Shown piece after piece: positions 4,009 through 60,641 of a stretch of DNA of 64,000 nucleotides. This stretch comes from a virus. Within the stretch, counting starts at the first letter, position 1, and each line of letters opens with the position of its first letter. The translations under genes and the position numbers were made by a program. The DNA is taken from IMG/VR virus record IMGVR_UViG_3300025122_005335, positions 1-64,000 of that record. One strand, given 5' to 3'. The notes beneath the pieces are model-generated. The model did not search any database, was not told the DNA's origin, and saw only the letters and a list, made by a program, of their open reading frames with translations.

Positions 4009-4885
4009 AGTTAATTTTGTTTTTTAAAAGGTCATATATGCTGCCTTTTTCTTTTGTTGGGTTGAAATTTGCAAACGTAAGTTTGGCAAAATTGAAATAG
4101 ACATTTAAAAATGTAAAAAGTTCTATTTCAGTAAAGATTCTATCATATTCGGATAAATAGTACTTTATTGCACCAATATACATTTGTTTTATTGAATGTG
4201 CCTTTCTTACAGTCAACCCTAACAAACCTGCAGATGCAGACCAATAGTCAATTTTTGTATCCCAAAATTTTTCAATGAATAATTCTGGTTCTATTCCAAC
4301 ATAAGGTAAACCTATCATAAAATTATTGGTTTTTTCGAATAATTTAAAAATATTTTTTCCTAAAGTTGGGTTAAAAATATCATTTTCGTTTTTAGGGTAG
4401 TAGTTATCCCAATTTTGTACTTTTATATCATGCCAAGTACCACCACACTCTTCGGGAATATAAGATTCGTTACTTAACCCGGCATCCATCCAGACAACTC
4501 TTTCGTATTTTAAACTAATAGCATCTAAAATATAAAATAGCTTTGCTGTTGTAAGCATAGGACTCCAACAGTAAACACCAGTTGGGTTTTTATCTATTAT
4601 TTTCTTACTATATTCAAATATTTCGTCGTAAAAGGGGTTAATATCTTTTGAAGTTTTATTAATAAATGTTGGTAAAGACTGTACTTTGTCTTTCAAAGCA
4701 TTAGTTATATCTTCTTCTACAGATTTGTTACAATAAATTAAAAGTTCTTTATCTAAATTTAAAAGACTTTTTATACCAGTAAAATAATGTTCCGGTATAA
4801 AATTTCTTGTTAATTTTGTGTCCTGACCTTCTGGTTGATAATTTTCAACCAATTCGACCGCGGTAACAATACAGTCTTTTAACAT
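3974..4885 (-). CDS. HtrL/YibB/WlaTC-like putative glycosyltransferase
   Basis: IVTA N-terminus, K-x-F-x-I/V motif, VWMDAG, FTEIE. Confidence 0.6.
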   Translation of the reverse strand: MLKDCIVTAVELVENYQPEGQDTKLTRNFIPEHYFTGIKSLLNLDKELLIYCNKSVEEDITNALKDKVQSLPTFINKTSKDINPFYDEIFEYSKKIIDKNPTGVYCWSPMLTTAKLFYILDAISLKYERVVWMDAGLSNESYIPEECGGTWHDIKVQNWDNYYPKNENDIFNPTLGKNIFKLFEKTNNFMIGLPYVGIEPELFIEKFWDTKIDYWSASAGLLGLTVRKAHSIKQMYIGAIKYYLSEYDRIFTEIELFTFLNVYFNFAKLTFANFNPTKEKGSIYDLLKNKINYDEIRFSNINL

Positions 4886-4921
4886 GAAAATATTGTAATA
4901 TATAATCTGTAAAAATCAAGG

Positions 4922-4945
4922 AAAAGGCGGCCCGTAGGCCGCCTT
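4922..4945 (-). terminator. Intrinsic terminator after hsp20
   Basis: AAGGCGGCC-cgta-GGCCGCCTT hairpin followed by a U run on the - strand. Confidence 0.8.
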
Positions 4946-4959
4946 GATAAACCTGATTA

Positions 4960-5379
4960 TTAGTCGACTTTAACGTCTATAACTTTATGTTCCTTCTCTT
5001 CTATTCGAGGAGCAGTTATAGCTAAGACACCATCGGAAAGTTTTGAAACGAATTTGTCTACATCAAAATCCGAAGGGTCCAATCGGAATGACCTTGTATA
5101 TGTTTCTTCTTTTGAACCAGTTTTAGAAGTAATGGTACGCTTAGCTTCAACATATGCAACGTTTGTATCCTCATTGTATGTAACCTTAAGGTCTTTTTTC
5201 TTCACACCCGGAAGATCAATCTCTACATGAAAGTTTTCTTTACTTTCATTGAAACGAATATTATCGTTAGAAAAAGATTCAGGTGTAAGAATGCGATCGA
5301 AATCATTAAAAATTTCGAATAATGGGCTGTACCGTCCCGCCCGTGGACTTGCTGTCAATTTAGTTAATAAGTTATTCAT
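4960..5379 (-). CDS. hsp20: Small heat-shock protein Hsp20
   Basis: VEIDLPGVKKKDLKV, YTRSFRL and LSDGVLAITAP alpha-crystallin motifs. Confidence 0.92.
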   Translation of the reverse strand: MNNLLTKLTASPRAGRYSPLFEIFNDFDRILTPESFSNDNIRFNESKENFHVEIDLPGVKKKDLKVTYNEDTNVAYVEAKRTITSKTGSKEETYTRSFRLDPSDFDVDKFVSKLSDGVLAITAPRIEEKEHKVIDVKVD

Positions 5380-5477
5380 GACAACAATATTTAATCACAC
5401 ATCCTCGAGAATTCAAGTGTTTTTCCCGCCAACCCACCTCCTTGAACCTATTGATTTATATCTCCTTCAAAATCTAT

Positions 5478-6047
5478 TTATATAAAATCGTATTTTATAA
5501 ATGTCTTATCTTGTTCATCTAGAAGATTTTCCATTTTATACGATTTACAATGCTTAAGAGTAAAACCCATATCTCTAAAAAGCATAGGTTGTAATACATA
5601 AGCGTAGTTATGTTTATTGTAAGTTAAGCGCACTTGACCATGCTTGTTAATAAACCGGAAACCTAATTTTTTATAAAATGGAATAGCGTCTTTATCACAA
5701 TACATTCTTAAAAATCTTGCAGATGAAAAAGAGTGCCTCCAGGTATGTTCTAATAGATCTTTTGCATGACCTTGTTTTCTATAATCTGTACTAGTAAAAA
5801 GTCTTTTAATGTGAAGATTATCTCCTATTACGTTATACGCGCACCCAGCTACAACATCACCTTTACCAAGATCTGATATTTTCATAATTACGTAGGCTCC
5901 TCGTTCATAATCCCACCATTGATTTTTATCCCAATAATCTAAAATATCATTCTGACAGTAGTCTTTTTCCCACCCAGACATTCTTTGTATTAATTCATTA
6001 AAGACAGTTCTTGTAGAACATAAAACATATTGATGATCTTTATCCAT
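5478..6047 (-). CDS. GNAT acetyltransferase; likely start MDKDHQ at 6047
   Basis: IKRLFTSTDYRKQGHAK motif A, AIPFYKKLGF motif B; TATAAT 7 nt upstream of 6047. Confidence 0.8.
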   Translation of the reverse strand: MDKDHQYVLCSTRTVFNELIQRMSGWEKDYCQNDILDYWDKNQWWDYERGAYVIMKISDLGKGDVVAGCAYNVIGDNLHIKRLFTSTDYRKQGHAKDLLEHTWRHSFSSARFLRMYCDKDAIPFYKKLGFRFINKHGQVRLTYNKHNYAYVLQPMLFRDMGFTLKHCKSYKMENLLDEQDKTFIKYDFI

Positions 6048-6072
6048 TCCGGTTATTATAAGATAAATCCGT

Positions 6073-9066: not shown

Positions 9067-9603
9067 TTATATCTCGTTTATTAAATTAGAAGTGTCACAG
9101 ACTATATAAGATGTTAAACCGGCCATTCTTTGATAAAACGGGACATCTTCATTTGCAAAAAAATCTTCACAATCAAATTTAACATTGTCTGACATATTAG
9201 AAAGACTATCAAAAGGATACAAACCTATTGAATATTTACCATAACTGCTACTAGTGCTAACATTAAACTCAGACATCATATGTCTGTAGTTATCAAAGCT
9301 CATTGTATACTTTTCTTTGTGTGATGCGTAAGCTAATTTTTTAGAAATGATTTTATATATAGCGTTTCCATTACATAACACACCATAAAAATATTTCATT
9401 TTAATACCTTCGTTAGTACGCACTAAATGTGAAAATTTTATTGGTGATATTTTTTTGTTTATAAGGAGCCTAGATTCGTCAAATTTATTTTTTATCTCAA
9501 AACCATAAAACAAAAAAGAGTAGTTTGTAAAAAATTCTGTTGATATACGGTATTTTTCATTATCTATTTTGTGTTCACTTAAGCTCGTTAGTAACGGGTT
9601 CAT
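9067..9603 (-). CDS. Hypothetical protein; start 9603 inferred from promoter spacing
   Basis: ORF with TTGACT-N16-TAATAT-N6-ATG upstream. Confidence 0.65.
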   Translation of the reverse strand: MNPLLTSLSEHKIDNEKYRISTEFFTNYSFLFYGFEIKNKFDESRLLINKKISPIKFSHLVRTNEGIKMKYFYGVLCNGNAIYKIISKKLAYASHKEKYTMSFDNYRHMMSEFNVSTSSSYGKYSIGLYPFDSLSNMSDNVKFDCEDFFANEDVPFYQRMAGLTSYIVCDTSNLINEI

Positions 9604-9633
9604 AGACATATATTAAAGTAAAAATTTAATAAG

Positions 9634-9867
9634 TCAAGATGCAGGGAACGACTTTATAATAAGAAGATTGGGTAACTTTAAAACTTTTCCTATTTTTCCT
9701 GTTGGTGTTTCTACTGTAATGGAAACTCTGTCTTTTCCCATCATAACAGGTCCTCTAATAATTTTACCACCTACTTGTCTGATAGTTTTGATAGCACCCG
9801 AATTGGTGTCGATTGTTTTTAAGGTAAACTCGTTATGTAAATCTACAGTAAGAAACTCATCAGACAT
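9634..9867 (-). CDS. Hypothetical late protein
   Basis: ORF with TAAATA-N5-ATG. Confidence 0.65.
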   Translation of the reverse strand: MSDEFLTVDLHNEFTLKTIDTNSGAIKTIRQVGGKIIRGPVMMGKDRVSITVETPTGKIGKVLKLPNLLIIKSFPAS

Positions 9868-9878
9868 AAAAGTATTTA

Positions 9879-10141: not shown

Positions 10142-11002
10142 TTATCCAGGCTGCATCACAGGTTTTGCTGGTGCGTTGGCTTTTTTCTGTGCATCGTTTT
10201 GTTCTTTTATTTCTTGTGCTAGAGTTTTTATTTGTAATATAGATTCAACAGGGCTCATAAGGTGTAAGAAATCTGATAATGGTATGTTTAGTTTACTACA
10301 ACACAAATATTCATAGTAATACATGTTTTTTAAATCCTCACTAAAACATGCTTTTAAGAAATCAAAATTTTGTTTTGAATTAAATGAAAAATAAAAATCA
10401 ATTTCAGTTCCTTGTTCGTAAGTCCAAGAAAACAGTTTTATTTGTTTGTAGTTAGAATCACTTTTAATAGCTTTCATTATCTTTTTTGCTAATTCGACGG
10501 GTATATAGTTTAAAATTTTATCTCTCATTTCAGGTGAGGTACTATTCATGATAACCCTGTCACCTGCAATAGAGATTGAATATATTTTATCATATAACAA
10601 ATCTTTATTGCTAATTAAGTAAGGGTAACTAATTTCTACTTTTATATTATTTTCTTTATCTTCTATTTCTTTAGTTTCAGGTACATAATTTTCTATTATA
10701 GTTCTTGATACTTTGCTTAATGATATAGTGTTTTGGATATTTTCTTTACCTGCTATGATTATATTTTCACCAATTGATATAATTCTACAAGAGAGTAAAA
10801 TTAAAATTTTATCTATGTAGTTTAATGTGCATTGTGTTTTACAAATGTCTTGTACTAAAAATTCAAAATATTTACAGAGATTTTCGTTATCCTGATTCAA
10901 TGAAAATTTTAAAATATTTTTATATTCGAAGTTAGTTAGTTCTCTACACCGTACTTGTTTGTCGTTTGTAATAGTAACAGGATACATGTAAGTGTTGACC
11001 AT
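10142..11002 (-). CDS. Baseplate hub assembly protein (T4 gp26/gp51-like)
   Basis: VRCRELTNFEYKNILK...IDKILILLSCRIISIGE resembles the gp26 N-terminus; lies next to tail genes. Confidence 0.5.
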   Translation of the reverse strand: MVNTYMYPVTITNDKQVRCRELTNFEYKNILKFSLNQDNENLCKYFEFLVQDICKTQCTLNYIDKILILLSCRIISIGENIIIAGKENIQNTISLSKVSRTIIENYVPETKEIEDKENNIKVEISYPYLISNKDLLYDKIYSISIAGDRVIMNSTSPEMRDKILNYIPVELAKKIMKAIKSDSNYKQIKLFSWTYEQGTEIDFYFSFNSKQNFDFLKACFSEDLKNMYYYEYLCCSKLNIPLSDFLHLMSPVESILQIKTLAQEIKEQNDAQKKANAPAKPVMQPG

Positions 11003-11040
11003 TTATTAATAATATAATCTAGTTTGAAATAATCAATACT

Positions 11041-11916
11041 CTATTGGAAGGGTGAAATTTTAGGAATTAAGCTTTTCCAACCTTTAGAACTGATTTTGTT
11101 AATAATGTCAGGTAAAGGTAAATATAAATTATTTCTTACAGCGTAATTTGAAAATGCCCATTCTGAGGAATTAATTTCTAAAGATTCTTGATCATATGTT
11201 AAATTTTTATTACTAACTGAAGTAGGCATACAATTATAGAAGGTCCAAATTTTTCTCGGTATTTGTGCTATGTTTTGATACGTTCTAGTAAATTGTAATA
11301 GACTAATTGTAGTACCCACATTTCTTGGATCACTAGGTGGTCTTGCTACCATACCAAAATGTTCAGCTAATATTGTCCAAGGTCGAACAACAAAATCAAC
11401 AAAGCTTGTATTTGTTTCCCTAAATTGTAAAGTTAAATTACCAAATGGTTGTCTACCGGTTGATATAACGCCGGGGATAAACCCTCTCTGTTTGTCTCCA
11501 AAAATTTTATCTCTATTTACTTCTAATTGTTCTAATCCTGGTATATCCGCTCCTTGAGCAAAAATACATCCGGTTACTTTATTCAAAGGATAAGATTTTA
11601 AAATACTCACTGCTTGTGATATATCAAAGTTATGATAATTACCTTCGGTTCTTTCTAAATTTTGTATAACAGATGTTTGCAATAACGTAGGGTAATTTTC
11701 AATTAACAACATCCATTGCGTGCGCATTGGTATGGTGGTGAACCACGATTCCATTTGAGTTAAAAAATAATCTCTTGTGCTTATTAAAGGTACCCCGGGG
11801 ACGGTAAATCCAAATAATGATGTAATAGATGGTTGCGCTAAAGGGTTAGTACCTCTTAATAACGCAGACACATTATCACCAAAACCTCTAATTGCTTCTG
11901 TAAAAGGATTATTCAA
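11041..11916 (-). CDS. Tail-tube-fold baseplate protein (gp54/gp48-like)
   Basis: LTLQFRET...RPW...WTFYNCMPTSVS tube-fold pattern; late promoter; near gp19. Confidence 0.6.
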   Translation of the reverse strand: MNNPFTEAIRGFGDNVSALLRGTNPLAQPSITSLFGFTVPGVPLISTRDYFLTQMESWFTTIPMRTQWMLLIENYPTLLQTSVIQNLERTEGNYHNFDISQAVSILKSYPLNKVTGCIFAQGADIPGLEQLEVNRDKIFGDKQRGFIPGVISTGRQPFGNLTLQFRETNTSFVDFVVRPWTILAEHFGMVARPPSDPRNVGTTISLLQFTRTYQNIAQIPRKIWTFYNCMPTSVSNKNLTYDQESLEINSSEWAFSNYAVRNNLYLPLPDIINKISSKGWKSLIPKISPFQ

Positions 11917-11922
11917 TTTTAA

Positions 11923-12285
11923 TTATTTAAGTTTGTTATAAAGGGTAAGCGTACCGGAGAAAAAAAATTTTTTACTTTTATATTTTTTACATAACGATAT
12001 CCACACCCGTTGCGCATCTTCGCTTGCTTCAAAATAATCTGTTTTTAATTTACCAAACTTTTTTAATGCTTTTACGTAAAGTAATTTACCAAAACCGTTG
12101 TTTCTATATAGAAGACCTACGTGTGAAGAAATAACAAAATATTTTTTTTCTCGAGCAAAATCTATTTCTAATTTACCTATTTCGGAATTTTTATATCTGT
12201 TTACTTTTATTAGTCTAAAGTGCCAAACCTCTCCTTTGAATTTTGAAGTTACTTTTACCTTAGGTTTATTGTGCTTAACCTTCAC
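11923..12285 (-). CDS. Small basic GNAT-like protein
   Basis: YRNNGFGKLLY (RxxGxG) and SEDAQRVW. Confidence 0.5.
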   Translation of the reverse strand: MKVKHNKPKVKVTSKFKGEVWHFRLIKVNRYKNSEIGKLEIDFAREKKYFVISSHVGLLYRNNGFGKLLYVKALKKFGKLKTDYFEASEDAQRVWISLCKKYKSKKFFFSGTLTLYNKLK

Positions 12286-12318: not shown

Positions 12319-12864
12319 TTAGTTTCGCTGCCAGTAATGGTAAGCCATTGTAGCTGTAAAGTTGATTTTTTGACCCGTGCCTTCTGCTATCGAATATTCG
12401 AGCGCCCCTACATTTCTAACAGATGCACCAACTAATTTATAACCTGCCACTTCCTCTAATTGTGTATCTAGTTGGACAAGATTTATAGATGCTGATTGTC
12501 TTGGAGCAAAATAGTTACCTGTGCTTGTTGCATCGTCGAAAATATCTCTTGACATATCTTCAAATTTTTGTCTTATTTGTGAGTTTTGATCACAATAGAA
12601 TGTAAGTGAATATCCTTCACTTCCTGTATATGTCACACTACCGGGGATATTAAACGATAGACCCATATAAGGTACCGCTACGTTAGTTATTGCTCTTTCC
12701 GGTAAGCTTGCTGCGGTGCAATATACTAAGTCATCTTCTTCAAATGTTGTGTCTGTGGCACCACCACCGTCTATTGATAACACTCTGAACTGAAAATCTC
12801 TTGCGAAGTCTCTTTCTGTTGCTACTCTATAAAAATCAGAAATTGTCTGTTGTACATCTGGCAT
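12319..12864 (-). CDS. Tail tube protein (gp19); start MPDVQQ at 12864
   Basis: Tube-fold motifs (ASLPER...VPYMG...PG, F-x-Y-x-YW C-terminus); directly downstream of the sheath gene; TAAATA-N5-ATG. Confidence 0.85.
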   Translation of the reverse strand: MPDVQQTISDFYRVATERDFARDFQFRVLSIDGGGATDTTFEEDDLVYCTAASLPERAITNVAVPYMGLSFNIPGSVTYTGSEGYSLTFYCDQNSQIRQKFEDMSRDIFDDATSTGNYFAPRQSASINLVQLDTQLEEVAGYKLVGASVRNVGALEYSIAEGTGQKINFTATMAYHYWQRN

Positions 12865-12887
12865 ACTAATATTTAATCCAAACAAAC

Positions 12888-12910
12888 AAAAACCCCGAAA
12901 ATTTTCGGGG
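12888..12910 (-). terminator. Intrinsic terminator between gp18 and gp19
   Basis: CCCCGAAAA/TTTTCGGGG palindrome plus U run. Confidence 0.75.
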
Positions 12911-12941
12911 CTTGTATAAGTTAGTCAAGTTAGCTTGATTA

Positions 12942-15515
12942 TTAACCAACAATTTCGCTAAAGTCTTGACCGGTTCTGGTTGCATAGAAGTTAACTAATA
13001 TGAACTCAGCTGCTCGAACTGGTTTCAAATAAATGTCAACAACTAACTCATTAGCATCAATAACTTCTGGTGTATTATTACGTTCATCACAAACAATAAG
13101 ATAATCATACAAGCCTTCATTATTTTTTGCATCTTCCATAATAGGATTAAGAACATTAAGAACGTTTGTTCTTGTAAACAACGTATTTGGTTCAAATACG
13201 AAATACTTAACTGTTTCTTTAACTCGTTTTTCGAGATATAAGAACAACCTTCTTACGTTAATTCTATCAAATGCACTTGGTTTAGTTTGTAGTGTCTTTT
13301 GACCATAAATTACAAACCCTTCACTCGGAAAGAATGCAACTGGGTTAGTATTGGTTTGATCATATATAGAATCACGTTGTTTCTGGTTCGGGTAAATTGC
13401 AACATCATTTACTGTGTCTAAAAGACCTCTTGTAAATCCGGCTGGTGCATACCATGGTGCGAAGTTGGCATCCGTTTGTGCATACTTCGCAGCCGCTAAA
13501 CCAGACATTGGTATCCATGTTTGACCAGATACTTGGTTATCAAAAACTTGTGTCCATGTAGCATAAGCTGCTGCATAGTTTGTATTAATAAGAGAATAAC
13601 AATTCTTTAAAGGCTGTAATATGTTTACCGGGAATGTATTTCCTGGTATATTAATAACCTTACTGTTTTCACCTTGAACAAATATCTGTCTAATTGGATC
13701 AGAAACATAAATGAAATCCTTTCTAGTATTTTGAGCAAACGTAATGAATTTGGTTTGAACAGAATTCCAACTAGATCTAATGGCAACTGCAAGCGGAGCA
13801 AGACTTGGTGATGTTGCTGACAACTGATTCATTCCTACTCGACTGGATCCAGGATCACCTAATGCATCTCTATCATCAAAAAACTGTGTACTGAAATTTG
13901 TATTATTTGTTGTATTATCGATCGTAGTTTGAATAGTACCTAACCCGGCTTCTGGGATGATATCAATATCAAATATGTCTTGGTTCGCTAATCTGTCAAA
14001 TACACGATCTAACTTACCTGGTATATTTCCAATAGCTTTTACATTAAGACTCGATGTTGTTGATCTGTCGTTTGTCGAATAAACGGCAGCGGGTAACATT
14101 GTTTGGAACCCCATGCCAAATGTAGTACCATATGTAAAATCTGAAGAATTTATAATATAGTTACCAGAACTAATATCTGCAACGTCTACTTGATTAAAAC
14201 CAACAATTTCTCTGTAAGCTCGAATATTACCATAATCACCTTCAGCATTATTAGTATATGTGCGGTTAATTAAACCATCATTCATTATTCTTACCTTTCT
14301 GAATGGCTCACCTGTATCGGAAAGTGTTGCACCATCATATTTTCCGGAGACGTATGGGTTAATTTTCATTGCAGTATTAACACTCTTGTTTGAGAGCTTT
14401 TGCGGTAAGTAATAACTTACAGGCTGACCTCCATTTTCGTTATTAATTTGTCTAAAGTAATCAATACTTCCAAAGTAACCTTCTTCTAATACAAAGTCTA
14501 ATTTAGTAACTTCAGGTGAAAAGACTGATGTTCTAAATTTATACAACCCATGTACAAGTGTGTCGTCAAATGCAGATGTTGCTACGTTGAATGACGTAAT
14601 TTTTTCAGTAACTTCTGAAATATTATATTCAACTGTTTCTGGCAAAATAGCAGCACTAAGTGCAAAATTTAATCTGTTGGTTGGAACCCTTGTTAGGGTA
14701 TCATATTGTACCGTTGTTAATGTTTCGTTTTTGCTTACATTAACACCACCAAAATCATCATAATTTGTAGTTGGGTATATGTTGGTGTTATCTATTAAAC
14801 CAGAATAATAACCTTCTAATTTACTATTGACTGTTGTTTTGGCGGTATTAAGCAAGATAACAGCAGCACCACCTAGATTGGTTAAATCGGTTGTTAAATT
14901 ACCTGTACTGGTTTGAGGTACACTAAACGAACCTTGCTCACCTATAGGTGAGTCTATCCATGCTATAGCAGAATCATCTAAAATAGCTTGATACTGAGCT
15001 TGAGTTAAAGTCAAGAATGTTGGTTTACCTAAAAAGTAATAAACTGTATTACCAGAAGACGCTGGTGAAAATTGTGAAACTGTTTGACCACCTGCAATGT
15101 CAATGTTGGCAGATAAAGTGTTCCACTCGCTTATGGCTGCACTACTTTCGTTGGCGAGCGCGTTTTCATATGCATCTTTGTTAATTGGTCTACCTGGGTA
15201 TACTGTGGCGAAATATTTGTTGGTGAACCCGTCACCTAAATTTACACCATATGGTAATCTGTTTACCATAATATTAGCTCTACTATTAAATGATTGAGCT
15301 ATTGTGTGGTAAAAATACCGCTCTGCGGAATTTGTAGGTTGCCCGTAAATTGATTCGAATTCTGATAAGCTCGACACCTGTATGATTTCATCACTAGGTC
15401 CTTGAGGAGAGAACCCCGCAACAAAAATTGTTGTCCCGATTTTATCAGCGCTCCTTAGAGATAAATCGACTTCATTAATTTCTACACCCGGACTTTGAAT
15501 AGTTCTTTGCGACAT
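12942..15515 (-). CDS. Contractile tail sheath protein (gp18)
   Basis: SPGVEINEVD N-terminus, PWYAPAGFTRG, GQKTLQ, SAFDRINVRRLF, FEPN, KPVRAAEFI. Confidence 0.96.
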   Translation of the reverse strand: MSQRTIQSPGVEINEVDLSLRSADKIGTTIFVAGFSPQGPSDEIIQVSSLSEFESIYGQPTNSAERYFYHTIAQSFNSRANIMVNRLPYGVNLGDGFTNKYFATVYPGRPINKDAYENALANESSAAISEWNTLSANIDIAGGQTVSQFSPASSGNTVYYFLGKPTFLTLTQAQYQAILDDSAIAWIDSPIGEQGSFSVPQTSTGNLTTDLTNLGGAAVILLNTAKTTVNSKLEGYYSGLIDNTNIYPTTNYDDFGGVNVSKNETLTTVQYDTLTRVPTNRLNFALSAAILPETVEYNISEVTEKITSFNVATSAFDDTLVHGLYKFRTSVFSPEVTKLDFVLEEGYFGSIDYFRQINNENGGQPVSYYLPQKLSNKSVNTAMKINPYVSGKYDGATLSDTGEPFRKVRIMNDGLINRTYTNNAEGDYGNIRAYREIVGFNQVDVADISSGNYIINSSDFTYGTTFGMGFQTMLPAAVYSTNDRSTTSSLNVKAIGNIPGKLDRVFDRLANQDIFDIDIIPEAGLGTIQTTIDNTTNNTNFSTQFFDDRDALGDPGSSRVGMNQLSATSPSLAPLAVAIRSSWNSVQTKFITFAQNTRKDFIYVSDPIRQIFVQGENSKVINIPGNTFPVNILQPLKNCYSLINTNYAAAYATWTQVFDNQVSGQTWIPMSGLAAAKYAQTDANFAPWYAPAGFTRGLLDTVNDVAIYPNQKQRDSIYDQTNTNPVAFFPSEGFVIYGQKTLQTKPSAFDRINVRRLFLYLEKRVKETVKYFVFEPNTLFTRTNVLNVLNPIMEDAKNNEGLYDYLIVCDERNNTPEVIDANELVVDIYLKPVRAAEFILVNFYATRTGQDFSEIVG

Positions 15516-15520
15516 ATGTA

Positions 15521-15526
15521 TATTTA
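15521..15526 (-). promoter_or_regulatory. T4-type late promoter for gp18
   Basis: CATAAATA followed by 5 nt and then ATG. Confidence 0.75.
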
Positions 15527-16156: not shown

Positions 16157-16161
16157 TAATA

Positions 16162-17904: not shown

Positions 17905-17912
17905 TACACCAT

Positions 17913-17937: not shown

Positions 17938-17942
17938 TAAAC

Positions 17943-47070: not shown

Positions 47071-47118
47071 GTGAGTTAATTATAGTTTACTCTTCAAATA
47101 TTTCAAGTAAATAATACT

Positions 47119-49214: not shown

Positions 49215-49236
49215 GTTTGATTTATTTACTTACGTG

Positions 49237-51051: not shown

Positions 51052-51073
51052 AAAATATAATTATACGTATATC

Positions 51074-51832: not shown

Positions 51833-52881
51833 TGTTTATATAAATCTACTGTATATTCTATTACTTCTTTTTTGTTGTTAACGTCTAACATGTTTATAAA
51901 ATTGGTAATTGCTGTTTGATAATCTACACCCGAGTATTCGTACTCTAATTCACCTTCTACAGAAAATTTATTGTAATTAATTTCGTAATCAACAGTAATT
52001 GTGAAGGGTTTTAGGTTGTTTAAACATATCATGATGATATCTAAGTCGTCTGCTTGTACGTTTTTATCAATAACCAACTTTATTATATTGCCCTTTATTA
52101 ATTTTCTTAGTTCAGGGGTTATACCATCGAAGGAAATAAGCTCACTTAGTAATATTTTTTTGTGTTTTGGCGATACCGTGTTTTTATAAAAAACAGGTTC
52201 TTGTATTTTATCAAAATCCAAAATATAGAACCCTTTTTCGCTTTCTGCATCTCCAAAATCCATTTGGAATGGGTTACCTAGGTAAAGAATTTTACCATCT
52301 TTAAATTTACGTTCATCTTTTAAGTGAAAGTGCCCTGTAATTACCATTTTTGATTTTTTTAATAGAGAATGGGGGTTATCTCCACTGTCACATACCTTAA
52401 AATTGTTCATTTTAAAATTTTCTAGCTCAAAATGGCCAAATATAAGATCAGATTTTGGTATTTTTTTAATTTGTTCGCCCCAGGGTACAAAAGTTATTGT
52501 TTTATTGTGAATTTCTTCTGTGTGTAGCTTGTCAATAACGCTTATATTATTCCAACCATTCAATAATGACAGTGAATTAACGCAACTAGTATCTTTATAA
52601 TAGCAGTCGTGGTTACCGGTGATCATTACGATGTTATAATCCTTTAATATATCAAAAAATTGTTTTGCAATTTGTAGACTGTTAACAGCTATTTCATCTC
52701 TGTAGTGAAATAGATCACCACAAATCATAATATCTTTTATTTTTAATTTTTTTAAGTTTTTATCTAACCATTTACCCCAATCAAGCAGAATTTTATGCCA
52801 ATTACTCTTGTTTTGGTGGATTCCTAAATGTATGTCTGATATGCAACAAATTTTTGATTGTTTGAAATTTATAGTAACCAC
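51820..52881 (-). CDS. Mre11/SbcD-like nuclease (gp47)
   Basis: SDIHLG, GDLF, GNHD, GHFE, GHFH, YLGNP. Confidence 0.95.
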   Translation of the reverse strand: MVTINFKQSKICCISDIHLGIHQNKSNWHKILLDWGKWLDKNLKKLKIKDIMICGDLFHYRDEIAVNSLQIAKQFFDILKDYNIVMITGNHDCYYKDTSCVNSLSLLNGWNNISVIDKLHTEEIHNKTITFVPWGEQIKKIPKSDLIFGHFELENFKMNNFKVCDSGDNPHSLLKKSKMVITGHFHLKDERKFKDGKILYLGNPFQMDFGDAESEKGFYILDFDKIQEPVFYKNTVSPKHKKILLSELISFDGITPELRKLIKGNIIKLVIDKNVQADDLDIIMICLNNLKPFTITVDYEINYNKFSVEGELEYEYSGVDYQTAITNFINMLDVNNKKEVIEYTVDLYKQCKE

Positions 52882-52906
52882 TTTAAATATAATATATTAA
52901 TTACAA

Positions 52907-53914
52907 ATGAGTACAACCCTTGTTACAGCAATTTATTATGGAGAAAGAGAAGGTGAGTTTGGAGGTCGGTGTTGGCAAGAGCAATACTATTTTTCTTCTT
53001 TTCAAAACATTTATAATTTTAACTTACCCACAGTAGTTTTTTGCGATAAGCGCGGCTATGAGAAAATTTTAAAATATTTTGACTACTTAGATTATATTGG
53101 TATTCCAAATAAATGGACAATCATTGTAAGCGAATTAGGAGACTTTAAATTTAAAGATATTATAGGTTCACATAGAACTAGAGTTATTGAGTGGGAAAAG
53201 AAACAAACAGAAATAAGAAAAAAAGAAAACCCTGACGAACCTGGATTTTTTCATGCTCGTTGTGAAATACTTTGTCACAGAAAACTTTATTTTGTAAAAG
53301 AAGTAGCAGAAAAGAACCCGTTTAATACGGATAATTTTGTATGGGTTGATTCCGGGTGCACCCATTGGGGATTAAACCCACATAGTTTAGGTGGTGTGGA
53401 AATTAATAACTTTTTTAACAAAAAACATTATTACCCATACAATAAAAACAACGTGTTTACACCTGATGTGGGTAAAGGTATAGACAATTTAATTACTAAG
53501 CACAAATTTGTTGAAACCAAACATGGTAATCTTTGGTATAATTTACACCACGTTAAGCTTTTGTCAAAACTATTAGAAACAGATTATGGTTTTGAAGAAT
53601 CAAACAGTCATCTAATACACCAATTAGTTGGTGGTGTGATAGGAATTCACCCTAGTGAGTTTAAACCGTTATTTGATTTCTACGAAAAGGCTTTATTACT
53701 TTTAACTAGTACAGAACCACCTAACACGGACTTTTTTACAGAAGAAATTATTTTATCAGCTTACTATAAAATAAGAAATCAGTTTACGTTAGATTTTGAG
53801 GAATGGAACCATGATGTAAAAAGCGACCCAAGTTGGGTTGATTTCGGTGATGAAGACCGAACACGGGTAAAGTGTTTTTACAAAGTATGGGACGAGTTTA
53901 AACAATTCGCGTAA
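52907..53914 (+). CDS. HtrL/YibB/WlaTC-like putative glycosyltransferase
   Basis: TLVTA, KLYFV, NPFNTDNFVWVDSG, GGVIG, FTEEIIL. Confidence 0.7.
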   Translation: MSTTLVTAIYYGEREGEFGGRCWQEQYYFSSFQNIYNFNLPTVVFCDKRGYEKILKYFDYLDYIGIPNKWTIIVSELGDFKFKDIIGSHRTRVIEWEKKQTEIRKKENPDEPGFFHARCEILCHRKLYFVKEVAEKNPFNTDNFVWVDSGCTHWGLNPHSLGGVEINNFFNKKHYYPYNKNNVFTPDVGKGIDNLITKHKFVETKHGNLWYNLHHVKLLSKLLETDYGFEESNSHLIHQLVGGVIGIHPSEFKPLFDFYEKALLLLTSTEPPNTDFFTEEIILSAYYKIRNQFTLDFEEWNHDVKSDPSWVDFGDEDRTRVKCFYKVWDEFKQFA

Positions 53915-54400
53915 TCAATTATAATAGGCCTCATTTTCGTCCGTGGGTTTAACATAAACTGTTGTTTGTGCGTTTTGGCCATCGTTTAACGACTCTTCGT
54001 AAATTCTTTCTTTATATTCATTAAGAGCTTCATGGTGTCGTTTTTCTTTTTTAATTCGATTAATAAATGCATGAAACGCAATTGTAGTAAAATATGAAAA
54101 AGGATTGTATTTGTTACCATTTGAATCTGTTGCTTCTAAATTGAATTTTTTATTGAAAAGAGCTGTAAACATTTTTACAACTGCATCACCGATCATTTCA
54201 TCTTTGTAGCTATAATTTATAAAATTAGGCGCATAACTTAAACCGTGAGCAATTTTTGTTATCATTTCACCAAGCTCATTTCCACATACGTCGGTTTTAT
54301 AATAAGTTGCAATTGCTTCTTTGAATTCTTTTGAATTAACGTAATGTTCTTTACTTTTAGGTTTAATTTTAACGCCGTTTTTAGGTTTTTTTGCTTGCAT
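53915..54400 (-). CDS. Late-transcription sigma factor (gp55)
   Basis: HYVNSKEF, NFINYSYKDEMIGDA, NPFSYFTTIAFHAFINRIKKEK. Confidence 0.93.
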   Translation of the reverse strand: MQAKKPKNGVKIKPKSKEHYVNSKEFKEAIATYYKTDVCGNELGEMITKIAHGLSYAPNFINYSYKDEMIGDAVVKMFTALFNKKFNLEATDSNGNKYNPFSYFTTIAFHAFINRIKKEKRHHEALNEYKERIYEESLNDGQNAQTTVYVKPTDENEAYYN

Positions 54401-54444
54401 GGCTATCTTTAATTATAATATTGTTATGTATAAGTTCAACACTA

Positions 54445-55881
54445 TCATTCGTATAAATCTTTTATTTTTACACATATGTTTTCTTGTGTATATAAATCTA
54501 TTCTTTTATCGGAATGAACTTCACCATACCGCAACTGGTCTGCAATATCAACTATAGTTAATTTGTTTTTGCTTTCGTGCAAACGAAGTCCACGACCGAT
54601 CGACTGTAAGATTTTAATTTTAGCTTTACCGCCACTAGCAAAAACAATGTAATGTAAATTATTGATACTGATACCAGTAGAGAAAATCCTGCTAATAGCA
54701 ATACAAATAATATTATCATCCCGCTCAATAAGTTTTTTAACTTTATCACGCTCTTCAACATCTACTTCTCCTCTTATAAAATATATTTTTTTTTCTTTAT
54801 CGTTATTACTTAGTTCTTTGTAAAGTGCTTCTCCATGTCTTATATAATCTACTAAAATTAGAGAATTGTTTTTTACGCCTGTTGTAAGTTTTTTTATTAT
54901 ATTATTTCGAAATACGTTTTCGAAAAGAAATTCAAATTCTTGTCTATATCTTTCACCTGGGTCTGATATATCGATAGAATACTTGGGTCGTTGTTTGTAA
55001 TGTAATCTCACTACTTGTGCAACAGCATTAGTAACAAAATTTTCTATACGAAGTTCATAACTCTTTTTTTGGTATATAACTGGACCAATTTTACCTATTA
55101 TGTTCCACTGATCTGAATTATTATCTGGTAACGTTCCTGTAAATCCAAACTTATTTTCTGTTCTTATATTTTTTATAATTTTGTTTACTTTATTTGACCT
55201 TCTTACTTTATGACACTCATCAATTACTAATATATCTACGTGTTCTACCCAGTCTAAATTTGTTTTTTCGCTTTGTAAAATACCTAAATTAGCAATAATA
55301 ACATTATTTGTTAGATCAACGGGTGAGTTACCGGTCCATTTACCGACTGAAAATGAAACATTATACTTTTTAAAATCATTGAACGTTTGATTTACTAATC
55401 CTAAATCGGGAACTATAACTAAAACTTTCCACGTGTCTTTATTCACTTCTTGGTAGATTCTTTCCAGCATACTAGCCATGGCTAATGTCTTACCACCAGC
55501 AGTTGCTAACATAACAACACCTCTTCCTTTATCTAAACACTCATTTACAATTTCTTTTTGATAATCTCTTAATTGTAAAGAAAGTTTACCATTACCACCA
55601 TGAAGTATTTGAGGTTTAATAATTTCTTTAATACTATTTTCTAGATGTATTTTATCTGAAGGAAATTCTTTTTTAATAAATTGAATTATATTAGCTGTAA
55701 GACCAACTTCATATTTACCCGCGGGGGTTATAACATAAGTTCTTGCAGGCATATATCTACCATACCTTCTAGCAAATCTAGCACCCTCATTTTCAAAAGA
55801 GAAATGTTCTCTTATTATGTTAAGGTTATCTGTTTTTAGAAAAGCTTGACGTTTTCTTTTATCGTAGTGAAATACTACCAT
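54445..55881 (-). CDS. uvsW: SF2 DNA helicase
   Basis: LRDYQ, ATAGGKT, DECH, GFTGT, FSTGISI, LQSIGRGLR. Confidence 0.93.
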   Translation of the reverse strand: MVVFHYDKRKRQAFLKTDNLNIIREHFSFENEGARFARRYGRYMPARTYVITPAGKYEVGLTANIIQFIKKEFPSDKIHLENSIKEIIKPQILHGGNGKLSLQLRDYQKEIVNECLDKGRGVVMLATAGGKTLAMASMLERIYQEVNKDTWKVLVIVPDLGLVNQTFNDFKKYNVSFSVGKWTGNSPVDLTNNVIIANLGILQSEKTNLDWVEHVDILVIDECHKVRRSNKVNKIIKNIRTENKFGFTGTLPDNNSDQWNIIGKIGPVIYQKKSYELRIENFVTNAVAQVVRLHYKQRPKYSIDISDPGERYRQEFEFLFENVFRNNIIKKLTTGVKNNSLILVDYIRHGEALYKELSNNDKEKKIYFIRGEVDVEERDKVKKLIERDDNIICIAISRIFSTGISINNLHYIVFASGGKAKIKILQSIGRGLRLHESKNKLTIVDIADQLRYGEVHSDKRIDLYTQENICVKIKDLYE

Positions 55882-55927
55882 TACATTGATTGTAAAATAT
55901 TTACCGTGTTTTTCAAGATAAATATTT

Positions 55928-55986: not shown

Positions 55987-56277
55987 TTATTTAACTTCCC
56001 AACTCAATCCATTTGTCCATTTAAGAACGTGATTAAGTATCCACGCATAAACCCAGCCACCTAACCACCCAGCAATACCAAATCCGACAATACTCGGTAT
56101 AGTACTTGTAACAGTCTCTCCTATTGTATGTACGGCTCCATCGACGTCACCTAATGTACCAGCAGCAAGCAATGCTAACACTGGTAAAACAATGACCTTT
56201 ACAGCTCCGGTGAATGCGCCCAGCAAACCGACTACATTTGCTACGGACAGCACTCCAACTTTAGTTAATTTCTTCAT
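55987..56277 (-). CDS. Small membrane protein (DUF3566-like)
   Basis: KVGVLSVA N-terminus, two TM segments, C-terminal N...GLSWEV; late promoter. Confidence 0.6.
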   Translation of the reverse strand: MKKLTKVGVLSVANVVGLLGAFTGAVKVIVLPVLALLAAGTLGDVDGAVHTIGETVTSTIPSIVGFGIAGWLGGWVYAWILNHVLKWTNGLSWEVK

Positions 56278-56306
56278 TACCGTTTATTTAAGCGAAACCC
56301 CTTCAT

Positions 56307-58626: not shown

Positions 58627-59021
58627 TGAGTTTCTAATTTTTGTATTTCAATAATATTTCTAATATCAAAACCAATTGAACTCAAAATTCTTTCTACTCT
58701 TTCAAGATAATCAATTAAAAGCAGGTTTTCTTCAATTTCTGAATTGATATTTTTTATAAAATCGGAATTTTCAGCAACCTTTTCGGCTGCTGGTGTTGAA
58801 AGCCTAACATTACTTTGTTCTTGTATTTTTTTTGTAACTTCAACTAACCTATCCTTCTTTTTCTTTCTTAAAATATTGACTTCATGTTTATGTCTCATTA
58901 ATCTTCCAACCCATATGTGTCTTCTACCAGGTAATTGTAATTGAACGTCTTTCAAGTTAAATTCATCAATAGATAAATGTTCAACAAGTTCTTTTGAATA
59001 GGTTTCTAATATATCAGACAT
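58623..59021 (-). CDS. uvsY: Recombination mediator
   Basis: L-x-IDE, P-x-x-x-H-x-W, helical body, GFDIRNIIE C-terminus. Confidence 0.75.
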   Translation of the reverse strand: MSDILETYSKELVEHLSIDEFNLKDVQLQLPGRRHIWVGRLMRHKHEVNILRKKKKDRLVEVTKKIQEQSNVRLSTPAAEKVAENSDFIKNINSEIEENLLLIDYLERVERILSSIGFDIRNIIEIQKLETQ

Positions 59022-59052
59022 TTAATTAAATATTATCACATATTTACAATAG

Positions 59053-59613
59053 ATGTCAATATATAAAAACGCATTTTTAAAGGCTTTGTTACTAGATGAT
59101 GGTAATGTGGCTGGTTCTGGTGGTGCTTTAGGTGATTGGACACAATCTCACTTTTCTGGAGACTTTTATGCCCCGGGTGATGCTAGAAGGCCTTTTGGTA
59201 TGGGTGCAATGCAAAGAAGGGCCGGTACTAGTAAGAAGAAAAAAAAGAAAAAGAAAAAGAAGGGTAAGAAGAAAAAGTCTACAATAAAAGAATATAGAAA
59301 TATTGAACCTACGGGTGATGGAGGGCAACCTCAGATTAGCCCCGAAACACAGGAATTACTTACTATAGTAAAAGAAACTAGGACCTCTGCAGAATTTGGT
59401 CTAGCAGAATATAAAGTAGCAGAAATTTGGAACGGGTGGGGTGACGAACTTCAAAAAAAAATTAAACGTGAAATACATGCAATTAATGGACCACATATGG
59501 GAACTTCAGAGGAAGACATTCTTTTATTGCTTATACGTCTAGCTGAAAAAAAATCAGAAGATGATGAAGGGGATATTGATCCAAACGGTGGTTGGGGTGG
59601 TTTGTCCATATAA
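59053..59613 (+). CDS. Hypothetical protein with a poly-lysine tract
   Basis: GDFYAPGDARRP followed by KKKKKKKKKKGKKKK. Confidence 0.6.
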   Translation: MSIYKNAFLKALLLDDGNVAGSGGALGDWTQSHFSGDFYAPGDARRPFGMGAMQRRAGTSKKKKKKKKKKGKKKKSTIKEYRNIEPTGDGGQPQISPETQELLTIVKETRTSAEFGLAEYKVAEIWNGWGDELQKKIKREIHAINGPHMGTSEEDILLLLIRLAEKKSEDDEGDIDPNGGWGGLSI

Positions 59614-59627
59614 ATTAATTAAATTTT

Positions 59628-60041
59628 TTGGTGGATAACTACGGTCACTGGACTTATAATCTCGAAGAGAAAGAGATACCCGACACCTTCTACGGTTTTA
59701 TTTACCAGATAACGAATACAACTAACGACAGGAAATATATTGGTAAAAAACAATCAACTACAATTCTAAAACGACCACCTCTTAAGGGTAGAAAAAACAA
59801 AAGGCATGTGGTTAAGGAAACAGATTGGAAAATATATACTGGTTCATCAGATAAGTTAAATGAAGACATTCAAAAGTTAGGTAAAGACAAGTTTAAGTTT
59901 GAAATACTGAGATTCTGTCAAAGTAAAAGTGAACTTGCGTATTATGAAGCAAAAATGCAATTTGATAAAGATGTCTTATTAAAAGAAGATTATTACAACG
60001 GTATTATTAACTTAAGATTGGGTAAAATAAAAAAAACTTGA
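59628..60041 (+). CDS. GIY-YIG endonuclease-like protein
   Basis: GFIYQITN...YIGKK, YTGSS, FEIL, YYEAK, YYNG. Confidence 0.8.
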   Translation: MVDNYGHWTYNLEEKEIPDTFYGFIYQITNTTNDRKYIGKKQSTTILKRPPLKGRKNKRHVVKETDWKIYTGSSDKLNEDIQKLGKDKFKFEILRFCQSKSELAYYEAKMQFDKDVLLKEDYYNGIINLRLGKIKKT

Positions 60042-60071
60042 TTTCATACGTAACTATTTTAATATGACTTT

Positions 60072-60641
60072 GTGAGACTTAGCTTACCAGAATACAATAT
60101 TGTATTAATTGACTTCCAAGACATACATAAAAAATATGAAAAGGATTTATTGGATGATATTCACAATTATCAATTGATGGACAGCTTGGTAGAGTCTCAA
60201 TTTATTAATAAAGACATAAAAAAGTTGTTATTTCATCATACCATAAAGAATTGCGTAGAATATATTAATAAAGTTAATTCAAAGAATAAGGTGGTATTAT
60301 ACTTTAACAATACTCAGTTTTATGAAAGCGAAATTTTAAAATATATCGATGAAAGAGATTATTTAAAACTAATTACAAACCTATTACTTAAAATACGTAA
60401 TTTATTACCAATAAAAACAGTAATTTCACATAGAAGTTTGATGTTCTTCAAAGAGTTAATAAAAAAAGATGATGGAAGAGCAAAAGGAACCGTATTAAAA
60501 ATATATTCTACGTTGCAAAAATTTAAAATAGAGAATTTTACATTTGCCAGGGTTAAGAAGTTTGCTAAAAAATATGATTTGACCTTTTTATCGAACGAAT
60601 ATTTTAATAATATTAAAACTAAGCAGCTTCTTTTTAAATGA
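60072..60641 (+). CDS. Hypothetical protein, possible degenerate T4 RNase H/PIN-like fold
   Basis: IVLIDF...LLFHHTI...KVVLYFN; TTGATT-N16-TAATAT-N6-GTG. Confidence 0.55.
   Translation: MRLSLPEYNIVLIDFQDIHKKYEKDLLDDIHNYQLMDSLVESQFINKDIKKLLFHHTIKNCVEYINKVNSKNKVVLYFNNTQFYESEILKYIDERDYLKLITNLLLKIRNLLPIKTVISHRSLMFFKELIKKDDGRAKGTVLKIYSTLQKFKIENFTFARVKKFAKKYDLTFLSNEYFNNIKTKQLLFK

Follow-up and report, generated by a model that had tools for sequence, protein, structure and literature searches.

The nearest precedents for promoters abutting start codons are Thermus phage phiYS40 and the Deinococcus-Thermus genomes; for T4-type phages we found no published description of such a layout. Most middle and late transcripts of phiYS40 are leaderless (Sevostyanova et al. 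2007, summarised in PMC3594737), and a "-10 region adjacent to ORF" architecture characterizes Deinococcus-Thermus and Actinobacteria (PMC12340547; GeneMarkS-2 group C, PMC6028130). The late promoter of T4, TATAAATA, lies at -13 to -6 (PMC1524935), and late transcription employs the gp55 sigma factor, gp33 and the gp45 clamp (PMC1524935, PMC2988020).

The source of the present contig is an uncultured marine T4-like phage, roughly equidistant from every cultured group. It shares with T4 the core box (A)TAAATA, without a -35 element, upstream of virion and packaging genes, together with gp55 and gp45 homologues; unlike T4, where the box mostly lies 10-30 nt before the start and is followed by a Shine-Dalgarno (SD) site, here it lies 5-8 nt away and no SD is present. 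It resembles phiYS40, a lytic phage, in that its messages would mostly lack a leader, but the lineages are unrelated and the host of phiYS40 is a thermophile from a phylum rich in leaderless genes. Leaderlessness in phiYS40, moreover, goes with middle and late expression and with an IF2/IF3 shift, whereas here host-type early promoters are predicted to yield leaderless messages too. In Deinococcus-Thermus and Actinobacteria the remaining genes use SD sites and promoters often lack a -35 element, whereas here no gene uses SD and TTGAnn at 16-nt spacing is common; the 33% GC of the phage and its second, phage-specific box class are further differences. The Pelagibacter phage HTVC008M is likewise marine, T4-like and of similar GC, and it shares both box types, early and late; its major virion and replication genes, however, carry leaders and AAGGAG-type SD sites. 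Flavobacterium johnsoniae also lacks SD, favours A at -3 and has unfolded internal-gene starts, but most of its mRNAs have leaders (longer than 10 nt in 87%), and it uses TAnnTTTG promoters rather than the TTGACA/TATAAT type found here (PMC6847099).

Genome

The contig (IMG/VR record IMGVR_UViG_3300025122_005335, the window above being its first 64,000 nt) was analysed whole, as 80,050 bp of 33% GC with 107 ORF-called genes; it represents part of the phage genome. Judged by large terminase and sheath, HTVC008M is the nearest relative in culture (36-41% identity). Homologues of the gp55 late sigma factor and the gp45 clamp are present. With start codons set by an ORF rule and a box-aware refinement that biases them slightly toward boxes, a promoter box ends 5-9 nt before the start codon of 55 of the 107 genes (51%). 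These begin with ATG (45), GTG (7) or TTG (3), the last being poor for leaderless initiation.

Promoter boxes

All 16 early-type and 12 late-type sites listed in a preliminary description were recovered with their positions and spacings (28/28). Whole-contig distance histograms bore out an enrichment of TAAATA and strict TATAAT boxes just before starts. When the 40 nt nearest each start were dinucleotide-shuffled 1000 times for comparison, TAAATA was found 5-8 nt upstream of the start in 23 genes (shuffled 1.4 +/- 1.2, maximum 8), while every other 5-nt distance bin held 0-3 genes; 23 of its 111 genome-wide copies thus occupy a zone in which 0.3% are expected by chance. Matches of at least 5/6 to TATAAT ended 5-9 nt upstream in 24 genes (shuffled 8.7 +/- 2.7, maximum 18), and neither observed count was reached in any of the 1000 shuffles. 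The preliminary description had defined the early box as TAnnnT, and on that definition alone its claim would have failed, there being no enrichment at 5-9 nt (31 genes versus 24.4 +/- 4.3, with 29 and 35 in neighbouring bins). Sites from a generic sigma-70 scan were likewise no commoner than in shuffles (92 versus 89.4). The signal comes from the stricter boxes, from their -35 partner and from where they sit. Because loose -10-like words are common throughout DNA of 33% GC, some individual early boxes, above all those without a -35 partner, may be due to chance.

Early-type sites and mixed divergent pairs
2488..2502, minus: early-type box TATCAT-N6-ATG
4883..4919, minus: early promoter TTGATT-N16-TACAAT-N6-ATG
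9601..9637, minus: early promoter TTGACT-N16-TAATAT-N6-ATG; 9603 start supported by the L013 orthologue
11000..11036, minus: early promoter TTGATT-N16-TATTAT-N6-ATG; weak baseplate-hub family match
22740..22778, minus: early promoter TTGACG-N16-TATAAT-N8-ATG; 11/12 to consensus
23504..23540, minus: early promoter TTGATA-N16-TATAAT-N6-GTG; six variant upstream regions of orthologues retain GTG and N6
25874..25913, minus: early promoter TTGAAG-N16-TATAAT-N9-ATG, primase
27216..27252, minus: early promoter TTGACA-N16-TATAAT-N6-ATG; 12/12 to consensus
29437..29451, minus: early-type box TAAAAT-N6-ATG
30237..30251, minus: early-type box TATAAT-N6-ATG
31647..31682, minus: early promoter TTGTTC-N16-TATAAT-N5-ATG, gp45 sliding clamp
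33760..33795, minus: early promoter TTGATT-N15-TATAAT-N6-GTG
36336..36373, minus: early promoter TTGATC-N16-TATACT-N7-ATG, gp41-type helicase
37434..37470, minus: early promoter TTGATA-N16-TATAAT-N6-ATG, sugar epimerase
38704..38746, divergent pair: TTGAAA-N16-TATAAT-N8-ATG (minus) and TAAATA-N7-ATG (plus)
40731..40745, minus: early-type box TATCAT-N6-ATG, QueC
43447..43483, minus: early promoter TTGAAA-N16-TATAAT-N6-ATG, UvsX
43891..43926, minus: early promoter TTGATT-N15-TAAAAT-N6-ATG
47068..47121, divergent pair, 48-nt intergenic: TTGAAA-N16-TATAAT-N8-ATG (gp43 DNA polymerase, minus) and TAAATA-N5-ATG (plus)
51049..51065, minus: early-type box TATAAT-N8-ATG, gp46-like
52879..52916, divergent pair, 25-nt intergenic: TATTAT-N7-GTG (gp47-like, minus) and TATATT-N8-ATG (plus)
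53915..54439, minus: gp55 late sigma homologue, TTGAAC-N16-TATAAT-N11-ATG; short-leader exception
55879..55916, minus: early promoter TTGAAA-N16-TACAAT-N7-ATG, UvsW-like helicase
59019..59059, minus: TTGACA-N18-TAATAT-N8-ATG; weaker fit
60038..60074, plus: early promoter TTGATT-N16-TAATAT-N6-GTG

Late-box sites
5377..5393, minus: late box TAAATA-N8-ATG
9865..9878, minus: late box TAAATA-N5-ATG
11914..11929, minus: late box TAAATA-N7-TTG; GTG or ATG at N6-7 in relatives
12862..12913, minus: terminator (12913-12890), then late box TAAATA-N5-ATG; tail tube gene
15513..15526, minus: late box ATAAATA-N5-ATG; tail sheath gene
16154..16168, minus: late box TAAATA-N6-ATG; second tail-tube-like gene
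17902..17945, both strands: divergent late pair, 38-nt intergenic; TAAATA-N8-ATG, large terminase (minus) and TATAAATA-N5-ATG, 427-aa gene (plus)
19693..19708, plus: late box TAAATA-N7-ATG
20826..20868, plus: terminator (20826-20846), then late box TAAATA-N5-GTG
24376..24413, both strands: divergent late pair, each TAAATA-N5-ATG, 32-nt intergenic; N5 kept in all relatives
42354..42370, minus: TAAATA-N8-ATG, carbamoyltransferase; class uncertain
49212..49228, minus: TAAATA-N8-ATG, glycosyltransferase; class uncertain
56275..56290, minus: late box TAAATA-N7-ATG
60647..60661, plus: late box TAAATA-N6-ATG

The -10 hexamer of a promoter occupies positions -12 to -7. The expected transcription start was taken as the 7th base after this hexamer, or the 6th after TAAATA; the spacings peak at 5 nt for the late box (11 genes) and 6 nt for the early box (16 genes), so that the predicted +1 falls on the start codon. 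A purine occurs at this position in 47 of 55 genes (spacer letters are 49% purine), including 21 of the 28 in which +1 lies outside the start codon. In 13 box genes a leader of 2-3 nt, rather than none, is predicted; gp55 has a spacing of 11 nt, and the ribonucleotide reductase gene an upstream gap of 181 nt. TTGA peaks 30-33 nt from starts, and 13 of the 45 genome-wide copies of TTGAnn-N16-TAnnnT end 6-9 nt before a start. Of the five sites between 9 and 29 kb that score at least 11/12 against the consensus, three adjoin a start.

In IMG/VR relatives with large terminases 60-99% identical, box and spacing are retained although the letters of the spacer differ, and 44-59% of genes are box-adjacent; among 13 variant upstream regions of sheath-gene orthologues, 12 retain N5.

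Absence of Shine-Dalgarno sites

Whatever the class of start, SD words are depleted in front of it (2-6%), and GGAG, GAGG and AGGA are rarer there than in coding controls. Pairing with the anti-SD at -6 kcal/mol or better is seen at 2% of starts and 7% of internal controls. The absence of SD, as first proposed, is therefore confirmed and more pronounced than had been stated. Three equally AT-rich phages were run through the same script: box-adjacent genes and SD sites amounted to 48% and 6% in this contig, 4% and 42% in T4, 6% and 36% in P-SSM4, and 10% and 36% in HTVC008M. The earlier contrast with T4 holds, TAAATA lying mostly 10-30 nt from starts in that phage. The sequences thus show directly how the layout is built, its statistics, how it is conserved and how it differs from T4, a cyanophage and a pelagiphage.

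Probable leaderless first genes and coupled internal genes

Since a promoter box stands 5-9 nt before about half of the genes and SD is absent, the start codon is probably where most messages begin. The genome would be organised as many short transcription units, in which host-type promoters (TTGAnn-N16-TATAAT) would drive replication, recombination and nucleotide-sugar genes, and T4-type late promoters, presumably read by the gp55 homologue with the gp45 clamp, would drive virion and packaging genes. Transcription is expected to start with the start codon itself or 1-3 nt upstream; promoters so placed would make first-gene mRNAs leaderless or nearly so, and the 5'-terminal AUG or GUG would presumably be bound by 70S ribosomes with initiator tRNA. 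Genes further down each unit lack SD sites too and start on or beside the preceding stop, where the sequence is rich in A and weakly folded, an arrangement suggestive of termination-reinitiation coupling. Most other genes had been said to overlap or abut the previous stop; 33 genes indeed start -20 to +8 nt from it, most commonly at -1 or -4. We thus consider it probable, judging from the DNA, that first-gene mRNAs of both temporal classes carry leaders of 0-3 nt and that internal genes are translated by SD-free coupling. That both classes begin with the start codon or close beside it is supported by every DNA-level test run, with +1 as a predicted position. The sole metatranscriptome containing the phage holds 130-244-nt contigs, all inside genes. 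What we infer is where the 5' ends lie, how ribosomes bind, and that the host natively translates mRNA that is SD-less and leaderless.

It is unlikely that the boxes are instead AT-rich, SD-independent translation-initiation elements on leadered mRNAs transcribed from well upstream. FCB-group bacteria have a non-SD motif (GeneMarkS-2 "group B"), with the AT-rich Bacteroidetes motif close to starts (PMC6028130); SD is as scarce in a Bacteroidetes phage (7% in Cellulophaga phi38:1), and internal genes here show the A at -3 and unfolded start regions reported for Flavobacterium (PMC6847099). Such elements should, however, precede internal genes too, whereas boxes are found at 2 of the 37 genes lying within 5 nt of an upstream same-strand gene and at 53 of the 69 others (Fisher p = 2e-13). 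Nor would they need TTGAnn exactly 16 nt upstream, as 13 early-box genes have, or form two sequence classes that track gene function: wherever a replication or recombination gene has a strict box (primase, gp45, gp41, UvsX, gp43, gp46, gp47, UvsW), that box is of the early type, and both tail tube genes, the sheath and the large terminase have late boxes. They would not directly follow intrinsic terminators, as in the terminator-box-ATG packing at 12913-12862 and 20826-20868, or fill divergent intergenic regions of 25-48 nt. Divergent genes lie 17-68 nt apart, with a box at 19 of 24, and this packing leaves no room for leaders.

Quite unlikely, too, is an SD-using host in which the phage actively shifts translation toward leaderless and SD-less mRNA, favouring its own messages, for example by altering initiation factors or that end of 16S rRNA which carries the anti-SD. 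The precedent is phiYS40, upon whose infection IF2 rises and IF3 falls (PMC3594737), and the early promoters are of the sigma-70 type, as in SD-using Proteobacteria. Yet the early genes would be leaderless too and hence translated before any phage factor exists, and cultured control phages show substantial SD usage where the host is thought to use SD. The search for translation factors covered ribosomal protein S21 and RegA: using HTVC008M copies as tblastn queries, we found neither on the 80 kb, in which many genes are unannotated. The suggestion that the phage bypasses or disables SD-dependent initiation gained no support.

A reading in which the boxes are genuine promoters but translation starts further into the called genes, leaving ordinary leaders cut from the called coding sequence, is very unlikely. 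Starts were assigned by rule, and a few genes have in-frame alternatives close by (9609/9603, 12885/12864, 27224/27218, 38726/38744). However, PHROG/Pfam matches start within residues 1-14 of each called protein (residue 2 in the terminase, 5 in the tail tube, 3 in the hub, 1 in the epimerase and 4 in UvsX), orthologues in relatives align from residue 1 with the same start codon, and no SD precedes alternative starts, the best of four candidates still giving 6%. A chance by-product of AT-rich intergenic DNA, which the shuffle-level frequencies of TAnnnT and loose sigma-70 matches might suggest, is scarcely credible, being rejected for the strict boxes by the shuffles, by conservation of position and spacing across relatives, and by the absence of the pattern from the three control phages.

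Host

In its absence of SD the phage resembles a Bacteroidetes phage, but its early promoters are of the sigma-70 type, and the Bacteroidetes promoter motif TAnnTTTG is not enriched on the contig. If, as proposed, first-gene mRNAs are leaderless from the early genes onward, the host must translate such mRNAs unaided at infection, and it is reasonable to regard the layout as a constraint on the host lineage.

General features and affiliation

The window covers the initial 64 kb of a phage contig of 80,050 bp with a GC content of 32.6%. Identity of the tail sheath to its counterparts in Vibrio phage nt-1 and Pelagibacter phage HTVC008M is 36-41%; the large terminase matches those of T4-like phages of rhizobia, pelagibacter and Acinetobacter at 33-37%, and the DNA polymerase matches cyanomyophage polymerases at about 31%. 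Since homologues of gp55, gp43, gp46, gp47, UvsW, gp45, gp41, primase, UvsX and gp32 are also found, we regard it as a distant, uncultured T4-like phage. A Far-T4 affiliation was rejected. With the first 50 kb of Rhodothermus phage RM378, to our knowledge the one member of that group in culture, the contig has no more in common than ribonucleotide reductase, the C-terminal part of the sheath and some weakly matching stretches of polymerase; it stands nearer to HTVC008M. There are 29 related IMG/VR contigs, with large terminases 60-99% identical, and 19 DNA runs with marine or hydrothermal-vent metagenome labels contain 50% or more of the words sampled from 12-21.9 kb.

The only Rfam matches are two tRNA genes, and no riboswitch was matched in the few long upstream gaps. 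The following features are found in the window:

228-401, minus strand: tRNA genes Arg(TCT) and Leu(TAA), reading A/T-ending codons
630-4885, 27488-29439, 36354-44483 and 47985-49214: stretches rich in sugar-nucleotide and 7-deazaguanine genes

The former set comprises a PfkB kinase, an RmlA-like nucleotidyltransferase, dehydratases/epimerases and glycosyltransferases, and the latter QueC, PTPS/QueD, an amidotransferase and a NodU-type carbamoyltransferase. Together these gene sets suggest modification of DNA or of surface sugars.

Promoter boxes adjoining start codons

Inspection of the 45 nt before each start recovered all 28 of the boxes described previously, at the spacings claimed. Gene calling was neutral: in every ORF of 60 aa or longer the first ATG, GTG or TTG was taken as the start, and ORFs were picked greedily, giving 107 genes and a coding density of 97% on the 80,050-bp contig. 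In the distance histograms 12 of 17 upstream copies of TATAAT, the early box, lie 5-9 nt from a start, as do 23 of 34 copies of TAAATA, the late box, at 5-8 nt (mode 5). The bipartite form TTGA-N16-18-TAnnnT is found at 6-9 nt in 15 of 19 upstream copies, and TTGA alone peaks at 30-33 nt. Over both strands of the genome, 23 of 111 TAAATA copies and 13 of 45 copies of TTGAnn-N16-TAnnnT stand at the start-adjacent distance, where about 0.3% would be expected by chance in each case.

For the null model the proximal 40 nt were shuffled 1000 times with their dinucleotides preserved. TAAATA is start-adjacent in 23 genes against 1.4 ± 1.2 in the shuffles (maximum 8), and TATAAT with at least a 5/6 match in 24 genes against 8.7 ± 2.7 (maximum 18). 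The enrichment expected at 5-9 nt was therefore upheld for TAAATA and strict TATAAT, but not for loose TAnnnT, with 31 genes against 24.4 ± 4.3. A generic sigma-70 scan likewise gave no excess (92 sites against 89.4 in shuffles) and discriminates poorly in AT-rich DNA. The box-on-start pattern is real, and its signal is carried by the stricter forms of the boxes, by their -35 partner and by position, not by TAnnnT.

Classes of gene by start context
Box-adjacent: 55 genes (31 early-type, 24 late-type), after start refinement
Coupled: 33 genes, start -20 to +8 nt from the upstream stop, mostly -1 and -4
Other: 19 genes, several with slightly degenerate boxes (9603, 60072, 34976, 59021) or 11-nt spacing (gp55)

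Box-adjacent genes thus make up 55 of the 107, with modal spacings of 6 nt for the early box and 5 nt for the late box.

Absence of Shine-Dalgarno sites

GGAG, GAGG, AGGA and cores shorter than these occur less often at -20 to -3 than in coding controls, and an anti-SD duplex of -6 kcal/mol or better is found at 2% of starts and 7% of controls. The G content at -13 to -5 falls to 4-10%. The depletion covers all starts, including those of the 33 coupled genes. SD-core depletion and weak anti-SD pairing thus confirm the reported lack of SD sites before starts.

A occupies -3 in 61% of the coupled starts and -1 in 64%, and their surroundings (-20 to +20) fold more weakly than gene interiors (-1.6 vs -3.4 kcal/mol, p = 1e-5). 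Such features would fit termination-reinitiation, or SD-free initiation at unstructured sites. They resemble the start-region features seen by ribosome profiling in Flavobacterium johnsoniae (PMC6847099).

Evidence that the boxes are promoters

Six independent lines, all read from DNA, indicate that the boxes are probably promoters. The first is the bipartite structure of the early promoters, with a fixed 16-nt spacer; among consensus matches of at least 11/12 within 9-29 kb, three of the five best abut starts. Second, early boxes precede the genes for primase, clamp, helicase, UvsX, polymerase, gp46/47 and UvsW, and late boxes those for both tail-tube proteins, sheath and large terminase.

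The third line bears on the alternative that the boxes are non-SD ribosome-binding motifs. Boxes are found at 2 of 37 internal genes and 53 of 69 others (p = 2e-13). The non-SD motifs of GeneMarkS-2 group B behave in the opposite manner, being expected at internal genes too (PMC6028130), so that the avoidance of internal genes is contrary to what a ribosome-binding motif should show.

Fourth, the two best intrinsic terminators run straight into TAAATA-N5-start (12913-12862 and 20826-20868), and divergent genes lie only 17-68 nt apart with a box at 19 of 24. The fifth line is the spacing itself. The T4 late box TATAAATA spans -13 to -6 (PMC1524935), from which a 5-nt spacer would place +1 on the start codon; a -10 hexamer needs 6 nt for the same result, and the spacings seen most often are 5 and 6. 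With spacers of other lengths a purine is still found at the predicted +1 in 21 of 28 cases, against 49% purine among spacer letters.

The sixth line is conservation: across relatives the box and its distance persist and the spacer letters differ. Sheath orthologues have CATAAATA followed by TACAT, TCAAT, TCGAT, TGTAT or CATAT and then ATG. The N5 spacer is preserved on both sides of the divergent pair at 24378/24411, and TATAAT-N6-GTG at 23506 in six variants. Among the relatives 44-59% of genes are box-adjacent and 0-18% have an SD site. The sister group L027/L028, with a large terminase 60% identical, uses TAAGTA/TAAATA boxes likewise; judged from L027, this sister clade (39.5% GC) seems to have both TAAGTA and TAAATA as late boxes, in most cases at 5-6 nt before ATG. 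Its terminase and sheath genes have leaders of 17-24 nt without SD, and therefore SD-independence is not simply a result of the absent leader.

Three further sites were noted in the window:

15897-15924, plus strand: 11/12 sigma-70 site, antisense in a tail-tube gene
25446-25474, plus strand: 11/12 sigma-70 site, antisense in the primase gene
8886-9066, minus strand: 181-nt gene-free stretch upstream of the ribonucleotide reductase gene

The antisense sites could be antisense promoters or chance matches. In the 181-nt gap TAAATA lies about 125 nt from the ATG, the start itself has no box, and Rfam gave no match; the gap may represent one of the few long leaders, or encode a small RNA.

Late transcription and comparison with cultured phages

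Two components of the T4-type late system are present:

54035-54361, minus strand: gp55-family late sigma factor, 42% identity, E = 9e-22 (tblastn, HTVC008M gp55 as query)
30930-31649: gp45 sliding clamp, phrog_223 (DNA polymerase processivity factor), E = 1e-13

The box (T)ATAAATA, without a -35 element, is found upstream of the two tail tube, sheath and large terminase genes, and is kept in relatives. Control phages were processed by the same script as the contig.

Box-adjacent genes and SD sites (-6 kcal/mol or better)
T4: 4% box-adjacent, SD 42%, TAAATA mostly 10-30 nt from starts
Prochlorococcus phage P-SSM4: 6% box-adjacent, SD 36%
HTVC008M: 10% box-adjacent, SD 36%
Phage contig: 48% box-adjacent, SD 6%

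Direct reading reveals AAGGAG sites before the sheath, portal, capsid and clamp genes of HTVC008M. A minority of the genes of this phage (50001-100000) are box-adjacent, such as GAATAAATAAACAT-ATG at 25559 and TGATATAATGTAAGT-ATG at 26476, scattered among mostly SD-led ones, so that a cultured relative has the layout too, if infrequently. RM378 (bases 1-50000) has at least eight genes with TTATTTAA(A/T) 4-7 nt before ATG and no SD, including a 2421-nt ORF at 17847; others have a clear GGAGG. One class of RM378 genes seems to have a comparable arrangement of box and start.

Probable leaderless messages

On the DNA evidence we consider it well supported, and probable, that mRNAs of both temporal classes begin at or next to the start codon. 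Sequence features expected of leaderless genes, namely a -10 element about 6-8 nt from the start (modes here 6 nt early and 5 nt late), an SD-free spacer and an ATG or GTG start (52 of the 55 box genes), are found. The preliminary description of leaderless translation thus agrees with box spacing, lack of SD and start codons, the 5′ ends being those predicted from box spacing. Of four RNA runs only X20, a hydrothermal-vent metatranscriptome, contained phage sequence, as at least eight short contig pieces inside the sheath gene and the genes at 19213-20806, without readable 5′ ends. Contigs identical to the phage (14357-14633, 19391-19541 and 20238-20723) show its presence in an RNA library and do not prove transcription.

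Leaderless first genes with a -10 element adjoining the ORF are established in Deinococcus-Thermus and Actinobacteria (PMC12340547, PMC6028130). In these GeneMarkS-2 group C bacteria leadered and internal genes use SD, whereas no gene here does. The middle and late mRNAs of Thermus phage phiYS40 are mostly leaderless (review PMC3594737). A switch of that kind, from leadered early to leaderless later messages, was not seen: early boxes are no less often start-adjacent than late boxes (31 vs 24). The predicted leaderless state of both temporal classes sets this phage apart from phiYS40, and the absence of SD use from group C bacteria. Our literature search on leaderless T4-like phages, cyanophages and marine phages yielded nothing beyond citations of the GeneMarkS-2 paper, and no description of the box-on-start layout in T4-type phages was found.

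Host and translation initiation

It is plausible that the promoter layout constrains the host lineage; the further proposal that the phage disables SD-dependent initiation is unsupported. A Bacteroidetes host would agree with the SD-free starts, as Cellulophaga phage phi38:1, which infects this phylum, has SD at 7%. Bacteroidetes-type expression combines sigma-ABfr promoters, which carry TAnnTTTG, with leadered, SD-less mRNA, and the contig has canonical -35/-10 elements, a type reportedly not expressed in Bacteroidetes (PMC6847099). Only 4 of 143 genome-wide copies of the -7 element TAnnTTTG lie within 80 nt upstream of genes, with neither enrichment nor a preferred position, and the bipartite form (TTTG near -33 plus TAnnTTTG) is never upstream of a gene on the contig; power is low, the Cellulophaga phage control also having few. 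For a published T4-like genome, prediction of a Bacteroidetes host rests on Bacteroidetes homologues for only 6.3% and 0.4% of its genes (Table 2, PMC7198788).

A large terminase search of one genome for each of 185,579 species gave no host match. Homologues of the RmlB-like auxiliary gene, 26-43% identical, are scattered over Actinobacteria, Acidobacteria, Armatimonadota, Elusimicrobia, archaea and others, and therefore give no donor signal. The combination of SD-free initiation and canonical -35/-10 promoters is absent from the cultured T4-like controls that we ran. We offer only tentatively, as a rather doubtful proposal, that the clade infects an abundant marine bacterium with SD-free ribosome initiation and a canonical -35/-10 polymerase, and that the phage has dispensed with 5′ leaders in almost every unit of both classes.

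Significance

T4 serves as the textbook model for gene expression in phages, and few marine phages are commoner than its relatives. If the whole clade lacks leader and SD in both the early and late programmes, the translational controls that act in the leader and SD region of T4 cannot act likewise. Software that relies on a ribosome-binding site to call genes will place starts wrongly in such genomes, as the first-start rule did at 9603, 12864, 27218 and 38744. In practical terms the layout gives very compact promoter-plus-start modules, and the spacing signature could aid host assignment of uncultured phages. Should the marine-host proposal be true, promoter-to-start spacing would be a host-lineage marker readable in viromes, and the clade would represent a natural T4-type system of near-exclusive 70S leaderless initiation and SD-free reinitiation.
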